A DNA stretch of 32,000 bases from Candidatus Nanopusillus sp. GTDB taxonomy: Archaea; Nanobdellota; Nanobdellia; Nanobdellales; Nanobdellaceae. The stretch is taken from NCBI GenBank assembly GCA_028276785.1, contig JAPYVP010000001.1:30001-62000 (forward strand). Direction: 5' to 3'. The notes beneath the pieces are model-generated. The model was not told the DNA's origin. It saw only the letters and a program-made list of their open reading frames with translations, and searched no databases. Position numbers and translations under genes: made by a program. Positions 11,185 to 12,555 of this stretch are shown one piece after another (the stretch's first letter is position 1; every line of letters begins with the position of its first letter).

Positions 11185-11488
11185 TATAAAATATTTTGGT
11201 CCTATTAGATCTTTTATTGGTTTAATGTTTCAATTGCCAAAAAAAGATACTATATATATTTTAGATCTAAAAAAAGATGTTGAAGGAGGGTTTGTTCACA
11301 CATTCTTTTGTTTAAAACCATTGGACATTTATCTATATAACTCAAATTTCGAATTAGTTCAATATTATAAAAAATTAAAGCCATTTAGAATTATAGTTCC
11401 AAAGAAAAAATTTAGATATATAATTGAAGGTTTGGATATAAATGATGATATGTTAAACTATTCAATAGAATATTTAAAATCTCTGTAA
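11168..11488 (+). CDS. Hypothetical protein, DUF192-like (candidate)
   Basis: 106 aa. The pattern GLMF...HTFFCLKPLDIYLYNSNFELV...YIIEG resembles the DUF192/COG1430 consensus (GLM..., W/FM...PLDI.F.d..g.V, yvLE..aG). The match is from memory only. The start is uncertain because it overlaps rps27ae by 17 nt. Confidence 0.4.
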   Translation: MEYKYSIKYFGPIRSFIGLMFQLPKKDTIYILDLKKDVEGGFVHTFFCLKPLDIYLYNSNFELVQYYKKLKPFRIIVPKKKFRYIIEGLDINDDMLNYSIEYLKSL

Positions 11489-11860
11489 ATTATTAGTTAA
11501 TATTTCTATCTCTATAAACAATCTATCTATTAAACTTTTTACTTCTTTTATTCCATTATTTATCTGTCCAAGAATTTCTATTTTTATACTTGGTGTTATG
11601 TAAGGGTTTTTACTTATTTCTTTATAATATAGAGTTATATAATCCTTTATACTTTCCAAAACACCTATTAATAACTTCATTGAATTTATTAAATTATTAA
11701 TTTCTTGCATTTGATAATTATATAAATAGTAAGGGTTCTCATTAAAATTTTTTTCATATGCATTTAAACTTTCTAATTGCAAAATATTGCTATTTATTTG
11801 TGATAGTAAATTCTTGATTTGGGCTAATAATTGATTTTCTAAATCTTGAATATTATCCAT
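11474..11860 (-). CDS. Hypothetical coiled-coil protein
   Basis: 128 aa with heptad-like Leu/Ile/Asn/Gln-rich helices at both ends. No family recognised. It lies just downstream of the C/D sRNA on the same strand. Confidence 0.5.
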   Translation of the reverse strand: MDNIQDLENQLLAQIKNLLSQINSNILQLESLNAYEKNFNENPYYLYNYQMQEINNLINSMKLLIGVLESIKDYITLYYKEISKNPYITPSIKIEILGQINNGIKEVKSLIDRLFIEIEILTNNLQRF

Positions 11861-11889
11861 AATTAATTAATATTTTAACTATCTTATAT

Positions 11890-11948
11890 TTTTTCAGGGA
11901 GGAGGTGTATTCATCATTTATTCAGTCGCGCGCAACATCATCATATAA
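11890..11948 (-). ncRNA. C/D-box sRNA (2'-O-methylation guide)
   Basis: The minus strand reads AUGAUGA (C, 11944-11938), UGUUGCGCGCGA (12-nt guide), CUGA (D', 11925-11922), AUAAA, UGAUGA (C', 11916-11911), AUACACCUCCUCC (13-nt guide) and CUGA (D, 11897-11894). All four boxes are perfect and the spacing is canonical for archaea. It is also the only GC-rich island in an intergenic region of this window. Confidence 0.85.
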
Positions 11949-12555
11949 ATTTTAATATTCCCTCCTTTTTATCTTTATTTAATATTTCTTTTATTGTTTT
12001 AAAATCTTGATCAAAATATTCTCTCCATTCTTTATGATATAATGTAGATGCTGGGTGTAATGTTGGTATTATTGTGATATTTTTTCCCCATTTATTTACT
12101 TTGAATATTTTTCCCCTTAATTTTGTTATTGAAGAAAATTTTAATTTGAAATAATTGAAAATCCATTTTGTTGAATAATGACCTAAAGTTACTATTATTT
12201 CCGGCTGAATTATTTCTAATTGTTTTTCTAACCAAAAAGAACATGCTTTTATTTCTTCTTCTTTCGGTTCTCTATTTTCCGGAGGTCTACATTTAACAAC
12301 ATTGGTTATATATACATCACTTCTATCCATGTTTAATATATTTTTTATATTTTCATTCAATACTTGTCCAGCTTTTCCAACAAATGGTTTTCCCTGTTTA
12401 TCTTCTTCCCTACCAGGTGCTTCTCCTATAAATAATATCCTAGAATTTGGATTACCGTCTCCAGGAACATAATTTGTTTTATATTTATATAAAGGACATC
12501 TGGTACATTCTGATATTTGATTATTTAGTTCATCAATCATCTTTCTTTTATCCAT
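11941..12555 (-). CDS. udg: Family 4 uracil-DNA glycosylase (4Fe-4S type)
   Basis: 204 aa. CTRCPL...[36 protein letters not shown] is the family-4 UDG motif, and further Cys at VVKCRPP and KACSFW complete the cluster. HPAS lies near the C-terminus. Confidence 0.9.

Follow-up and report, generated by a model that had tools for sequence, protein, structure and literature searches.

A conserved box C/D sRNA at the udg stop codon of Candidatus Nanopusillus, with two predicted targets in the 16S rRNA head domain

The window considered here, positions 30001-62000 of contig C26, is a 32,000-nt stretch of DNA from a Candidatus Nanopusillus MAG (Nanoarchaeota) of 597,562 bp, which comprises 39 contigs, has 25% G+C and is 85% complete. 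Public sequencing runs that contain the stretch are mainly hot-spring metagenomes. On the minus strand of the window, a 204-aa ORF belongs to the uracil-DNA glycosylase (UDG) superfamily (PF03167, E 2e-37). The closest public udg loci, with 90-97% identity, are those of Candidatus Nanopusillus sp., Ca. Nanopusillus acidilobi and Ca. Nanobsidianus stetteri, and that of Nanoarchaeum equitans has 59% identity. An 80-nt gap separates udg from the next gene on the same strand (start 11860), and most of this gap is occupied by the elements of a box C/D sRNA (Table 1).

Read on the minus strand from 11944 to 11894, the RNA comprises AUGAUGA, a 12-nt guide, CUGA, AUAAA, UGAUGA, a 13-nt guide and CUGA. 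Its terminal boxes (AUGAUGA and CUGA) conform to the consensus RUGAUGA and CUGA, and the internal D' box (CUGA) and C' box (UGAUGA), separated by a 5-nt loop, give it the double-guide symmetry of archaeal box C/D sRNAs. The C-D' and C'-D spacers of 12 and 13 nt agree with the expected length of about 12 nt, and the D spacer is 12 nt in one relative (G015). The TGA stop codon of udg (11943-11941) forms nucleotides 2-4 of the C box (11944-11938), which begins one base before the stop. A preliminary description of this DNA had read the four consensus boxes, the two guide lengths and the stop codon within the C box in the same way; the span it gave (11890-11948) does contain the RNA, of which the core is 11894-11944 and the remainder a few flanking bases. 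The G+C content over the RNA is 38% in a 60-nt span, compared with 25% for the genome.

Table 1. Features of the udg-sRNA locus and further box C/D candidates of the genome.
Feature	Position	Strand	Basis or remark
Box C/D sRNA core, 51 nt, C box to D box	11894..11944	-	Sequence, pattern scan, sub-threshold full-length Rfam matches, 17 related loci
C box AUGAUGA	11938..11944	-	Sequence; udg stop UGA (11943-11941) lies within it
D' guide UGUUGCGCGCGA, 12 nt	11926..11937	-	Sequence; pairing with relatives' 16S
D' box CUGA	11922..11925	-	Sequence; invariant in 17 loci
D'-C' loop AUAAA, 5 nt	11917..11921	-	Sequence and length (4-5 nt) variable among relatives
C' box UGAUGA	11911..11916	-	Sequence; invariant in 17 loci
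D guide AUACACCUCCUCC, 13 nt	11898..11910	-	Sequence; pairing with relatives' 16S
D box CUGA	11894..11897	-	Sequence; invariant in 17 loci
udg, 204 aa, family-4-type uracil-DNA glycosylase, likely sRNA host transcript	11941..12555	-	PF03167; adjoins the sRNA upstream in 17/17 loci
A/T tract AAAAAUAUAAGA, immediately 3' of the D box	11882..11893	-	ATATAA begins 29 nt upstream of the ATG (11860)
Downstream gene, 128 aa, no Pfam family	11474..11860	-	Its start is the 3' limit of the space for the sRNA
Other C/D sRNA candidates	C2:2692-2742(+), C4:4340-4388(-), C31:2022-2069(-), C32:2305-2354(+)		Genome scan
Weaker C/D candidates	C22:1446-1492(+), C32:50900-50947(+)		Genome scan

The proteins required for such an RNA are encoded elsewhere in the genome. 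Fibrillarin (PF01269, E 2.9e-85) and Nop5 (PF01798, E 1.7e-54) are adjacent on contig C39 and L7Ae (PF01248, E 8.8e-30) lies on contig C20, so that a methylation sRNP can be built. A second, weaker L7Ae-family match (E 3.8e-13) lies outside the window at C26:63660-63911 and has one TAA inside the matched stretch. Several of the other C/D candidates have features of their own: each guide of the C2 candidate has an 11-bp match to 23S rRNA, the two sites being about 50 nt apart (LSU 1934 and 1985), and AAGGAGUAGCUA, the D guide of the C32:2305 candidate, is almost the same as the one in N. equitans sR14. The C box of the C22 candidate likewise contains the TGA stop of an upstream ORF, and a TAA stop falls within the D' guide of the C32:50900 candidate.

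To assess conservation, 31 relatives were searched with a pattern for the element, and a looser pattern was then applied. The element is present in all 12 other genomes of the same genus (g1) that were searched and in two further genera of the same family (g4 and g3), and it was not found in the other families searched among the relatives. At all 17 loci of these three genera the sRNA lies immediately 3' of udg, over a range in which UDG protein identity falls to 59%. The alignment of the 17 loci shows unchanged D', C' and D boxes, a C box of the form RUGAUGA in 15 loci (AUGAAGA in both g3 loci), and guide cores that are retained as GCGCGC in the D' guide (15/17) and as ACCUCCU in the D guide (17/17). 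Variation is found at guide position 1 or 2 beside the D' and D boxes, at the box-distal ends of the guides, in the D'-C' loop and in the flanks, which is the substitution pattern expected of a guide RNA that forms a duplex over positions 2-11. The 128-aa gene downstream is conserved 3' of the sRNA in g1 and g4, with identity down to 41%, and was not detected after the sRNA in g3.

Overlap of the stop codon with the C box is seen in every g1 and g4 locus. In genus g3 (genomes G018 and G017; ~1467-1523), the udg frame is about 15 nt longer, enters the D' guide region and ends in TAA or TAG. In these loci the D' guide is A+T-rich and matches nothing in 16S, whereas the D guide persists, with a tenth pair gained. 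Judging from the alignment, the g3 RNA has the look of a double guide that is being reduced to a single one where coding sequence overlaps it, and this loss of the D' guide agrees with a published rule by which guides that overlap an ORF tend to become orphans (PMC6009581). In N. equitans, in an Aenigmatarchaeota-labelled MAG, in a Woesearchaeota MAG and in Ferroglobus, udg has no sRNA after it. The N. equitans udg has the same KFI end, followed by a TAA stop, so that the RNA arose at the stop codon, or was relocated there, within the Nanopusillus family.

The 16S rRNA gene of this MAG was searched for and is not in the assembly, in which the 23S gene lies on contig C15. The target search used the 16S genes of relatives from the same genus and family, whose target sequences are identical to one another. 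The preliminary description had proposed a search of rRNA with the guide complements, and both guides proved to match the relatives' 16S in sense orientation. Positions 2-12 of the D' guide, counted from the D' box, pair with 16S ACGCGCGCAACA in 11 contiguous Watson-Crick pairs, and the complement of this guide, (A)CGCGCGCAACA, forms the helix 30 3' strand of 16S. Positions 2-10 of the D guide, counted from the D box, form nine pairs with 16S AGAGGAGGUG, followed by one mismatch and two further pairs; the complement, AGAGGAGGUG(c)AU, is a sequence conserved in archaeal 16S, where it lies at the helix 34 base. The nucleotide at N+5 is G1198 for the D' guide and G1009 for the D guide in N. acidilobi numbering, which correspond to E. 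coli G1231 and G1048 by alignment to rrsB. By standard E. coli helix numbering, G1231 belongs to helix 30, in its 3' strand, and G1048 to the base of helix 34, on its 5' strand.

On same-genus 16S, both guides thus have a complementarity of at least about 9 bp with a Watson-Crick pair at position 5, which is C-G in each case. For nine g1 and g4 genomes, the RNA can be compared with the target segment of the same genome's 16S, and the contiguous Watson-Crick pairs number 9-11 for D' and 8-9 for D. A tenth genome, G018 of genus g3, has a D duplex of 10 bp and no 16S target for D'. The nucleotide opposite guide position 5 is always the same G across the genomes compared. Compensatory covariation between guide and target is absent, and the targets never vary among the relatives. 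When guides were shuffled, 4 of 5000 D' guides reached 11 bp and 244 of 5000 D guides reached 9 bp; the latter rate is high because the C/U-rich, low-complexity composition often recreates CCUCC. The D guide match alone is statistically modest, and its weight comes from conservation across three genera. Within this genome's 23S, no convincing site was found for the D' guide, and a candidate D site at position 79 was rejected as weak (eight pairs including one G-U near N+5, with a mismatch at position 2). From these complementarities, the two 16S sites are the predicted 2'-O-methylation targets of the RNA.

How the RNA is transcribed is suggested by its position. No independent sRNA promoter is evident at the locus. 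In a whole-genome survey of 454 ORFs of at least 150 aa, TATA-like hexamers peak sharply at -29 from ATG codons, and transcripts appear to be essentially all leaderless. Since the TATA-like motif peaks at this distance, the ATATAA in AAAAAUAUAAGA is likely to be the TATA box of a leaderless downstream gene. RNA-library contigs from two metatranscriptome studies run across the junction of udg coding sequence and sRNA (X19, 11910-12263; X20, 11905-12015 and 11891-11965), as RNA or as the DNA that RNA libraries can also contain. Contig cover is absent at 11687-11890 (X19) and 11400-11850 (X20), a gap that is evidence of nothing. One 133-nt X20 contig matches 11891-11965 exactly and continues, from right after CUGAAAA, with 58 further letters, and 28 of the 30 positions shown match sense-strand Nanopusillus 16S at ~1270-1297. 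This sense-to-sense junction has probably arisen by template switching or ligation between two abundant RNAs. Its place three bases after the D box, in a single low-depth contig, is a weak hint of an RNA 3' end at 11891. The earlier suggestion that the sRNA is processed from the udg 3' end is therefore plausible with respect to the bridging contigs and to literature precedent, and these contigs do not show RNA ends reliably.

Stop codons within box C/D genes have been described repeatedly in archaea. According to a review passage citing Tripp 2017, about 25% of archaeal C/D genes contain the stop codon that ends the gene upstream, nearly half of them in the C box, and most such RNAs are summarised there as processed from longer transcripts (PMC7994747). 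In Pyrobaculum, 23 cases have been reported in which the stop codon is provided by RUGAUGA (Lui et al. 2018, PMC6009581). Most C/D sRNAs of N. equitans overlap mRNAs and do not have paired ends (Randau 2012, PMC3491384).

Three other accounts of the element must be weighed against that of a 16S guide. UGA-containing boxes are short and UGAUGA-like strings are plentiful in A/T-rich genomes, so that a box-like motif could arise by chance in an A+T-rich intergenic spacer and have no function. Folding of the locus gives nothing better than shuffles (z 0.94), which can be read in the same way. The lack of an internal fold is however usual for archaeal C/D sRNAs and thus expected, the ends of N. equitans sRNAs having been reported as unpaired (PMC3491384). 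Moreover, a strict four-box pattern matches the 598-kb genome five times and 20 shuffled genomes not once; when D' and C' may differ by up to two mismatches, the figures are seven matches and 0-2 per shuffled genome. Together with the G+C-rich guides, the conservation and synteny at 17 loci and the matches of both guides to 16S, this leaves a functionless chance motif with a negligible probability. Alternatively, the element could act mainly in cis: a kink-turn bound by L7Ae at the stop codon of udg would define the 3' end of the mRNA or adjust the translation or stability of UDG, the guides being incidental. The overlap of C box and stop codon throughout g1 and g4 would suit this account; in addition, L7Ae binding to mRNA k-turns has been proposed to regulate translation (PMC5539422), and roles in mRNA stability have been raised by Lui et al. 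for 3'-overlapping sRNAs (PMC6009581). However, in all three genera the guide cores are under the same strict conservation as the boxes, and they match 16S, and a pure k-turn would need neither; udg itself does not need the element, given that N. equitans udg has no sRNA. An element that acts mainly in cis is accordingly improbable, and a cis effect may exist in addition to the guide role.

The remaining account concerns the D guide, in which the preliminary description had correctly noted an anti-Shine-Dalgarno (anti-SD) string, CACCUCCU. It had concluded that the target would be an SD-like sequence and not an rRNA helix, and such an RNA would methylate or mask SD-like GGAGG in mRNA 5' regions. 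The 16S of four relatives from the family ends in ...CUGCGGCUGGAUC followed by UAGUU (GGAUC/UAGUU), with the anti-SD ACCUCC cleanly missing, as already reported for Ca. Nanopusillus acidilobi (PMC10783764); in other families of the order and class, GGAUCACCUCCU is kept. A trans-acting RNA could thus in principle carry the only such sequence of the cell. Against this, the guide matches a 16S sequence of universal conservation over 9-10 bp, and its N+5 pair is Watson-Crick; the complement of the guide is the helix 34 base, and the proposed target gives way to an rRNA one. The mRNA 5' regions, which had also been put forward for a search with the guide complements, show no SD signal: GGAGG occurs at -18 to -3 in 1 of 454 upstream regions and in 3 of 454 in a control window, and the genes look leaderless from their TATA peak. 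Genome-wide, the guide complements were found only on the antisense strand of the sRNA gene itself and, as a sole further 11-mer, inside the RadA coding sequence (LGGGV), which was set aside as a coding coincidence. The likeness to an anti-SD arises because archaeal 16S helix 34 contains the SD-like GGAGGAGGUG; since the helix carries GAGAGGAGGUGCAUGG, a guide against it must read ...CACCUCCUC. An mRNA-directed anti-SD role is therefore very unlikely, and a tempting reading of the RNA as an anti-SD mimic is removed.

The best explanation is that the locus encodes a bona fide archaeal box C/D sRNA, most likely the 3' tail of the udg mRNA, which acts as a double guide for two sites in the 16S head (probability about 0.9). 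The evidence shows the motif with its conservation and synteny, the pairing with 16S of relatives and the encoded proteins of the machinery; the identity as a box C/D sRNA given in the preliminary description holds on each of these grounds, spacers and boxes included. Co-transcription with udg, processing, methylation and any chaperone role are inferred. The RNA would be transcribed as the 3' tail of the udg mRNA, in keeping with the lack of an evident promoter and with a C box that begins one base ahead of the stop, and would be trimmed to ~51-55 nt once L7Ae, Nop5 and fibrillarin assemble on C/D and C'/D'. The double guide would then pair with two 16S stretches in the 3' major (head) domain and direct 2'-O-methylation of the nucleotide opposite the fifth guide position, G1198 for D' and G1009 for D. 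These sites are ~190 nt apart in sequence and adjoin the same junction in the secondary structure, so that the RNA may also hold both strands during folding of the 30S head, a role that has been proposed for sR15 and sR17 of N. equitans (PMC4644070).

It is conceivable, if rather doubtful, that the main selected role is that of a long-range clamp for 30S-head folding rather than a methylation guide, and that the fusion to udg could couple mRNA 3'-end formation to sRNP assembly. The 5' strand at the helix 34 base and the 3' strand of helix 30 would be held until the enclosed subdomain had formed. If true, this would partially replace assembly factors that have been lost from reduced genomes; Nanoarchaeota do not have RsmA/Dim1 (PMC5389701). 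With respect to the preferred reading as a methylation guide, the pairing evidence indicates that the RNA, which is conserved and conventionally built, guides or at least pairs with two head-domain sites of 16S. It is a textbook case, in which fusion to a stop codon is documented as common and the likeness to an anti-SD is a coincidence. In the literature searched, no description of C/D sRNAs was found for Nanopusillus-type Nanoarchaeota, and the RNA adds a well-supported C/D guide with two predicted 16S methylation sites to a very small repertoire.

Among known systems, the matches to Rfam below threshold are exclusively to archaeal C/D families, namely sR11 (RF01150; 26 bits, E 0.0076) and snoPyro_CD (RF00095; 23.6 bits), and no match was obtained in the whole window at gathering thresholds. 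Both alignments span the full box architecture (models 1-57 and 1-58, respectively), whereas the guides of these families are unrelated to those of the Nanopusillus RNA. The RNA was not assigned to either family, given scores of 26 bits against 39 and 23.6 bits against 45. Published sRNAs with a stop codon in the C box (PMC7994747, PMC6009581) have the same sense orientation at the 3' end of a protein gene and the same RUGAUGA stop, likewise without an obvious promoter of their own and with maturation expected from a longer transcript. Nothing essential differs here, apart from a genome of ~0.6 Mb and a D box that adjoins the TATA-like box of the next gene.

The region targeted by the D guide is a known methylation cluster (PMC4644070). 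In the pan-archaeal alignment, the D target is G1024, and two nucleotides further 3' lies G1026, which is listed four times as a predicted target, including that of Sulfolobus acidocaldarius sR6 (PMC4644070). The guide of M. kandleri sR120 also pairs at G1026, as deduced here from its sequence. Both of these sRNAs have GCACCUCC-type guides complementary to GAGAGGAGGUGCAUGG at the helix 34 base, and their N+5 nucleotide is G1026 (E. coli G1050, aligned here), in contrast to G1024 (E. coli G1048) for the Nanopusillus RNA. G1024 is predicted as a target in none of the seven species compared in that study (PMC4644070). In N. equitans, a pattern search and the published list yielded no sRNA with a CACCUCCU-type guide.

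The target of the D' guide is G1218 in the pan-archaeal alignment, which is also the predicted target of the D guide of N. equitans sR15 and of the D' guide of Pyrobaculum calidifontis sR31 (PMC4644070). N. equitans belongs to the same phylum, and sR15 has a similarly compact architecture without a terminal stem (PMC3491384, PMC4644070) and a C' box of UGAUGU. It pairs with the 3' strand of helix 30 (ACGCGCGCA...) in the same register, including the mismatch at position 1, with G1218 at N+5. sR15 is a long-range guide that binds opposite strands of helix 30 and is a proposed folding chaperone (PMC4644070). The partner guides differ, that of sR15 being directed to G930 in the 5' strand of helix 30 and that of the Nanopusillus RNA to the helix 34 base. 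sR15 is also one of the N. equitans sRNAs listed as having a promoter and terminator of their own, and there is no overlap between it and udg (PMC3491384); located at L053:3219-3272, it lies ~1.1 kb downstream of udg on the same strand, with two minus-strand ORFs between. This proximity is weak synteny and may be a remnant of ancestry shared with the Nanopusillus RNA. sR15 was considered as an ortholog and not retained, given that only G1218 is shared, on D' instead of D, and that the other guide is directed to helix 34 instead of G930. The Nanopusillus RNA is thus functionally related to sR15 and not a straightforward ortholog, orthology being not established. A helix 30 target (E. coli G1231) that is common to both lineages, with its guide in the D half of sR15 and the D' half of the Nanopusillus RNA, illustrates the guide shuffling that has been described for other archaea.
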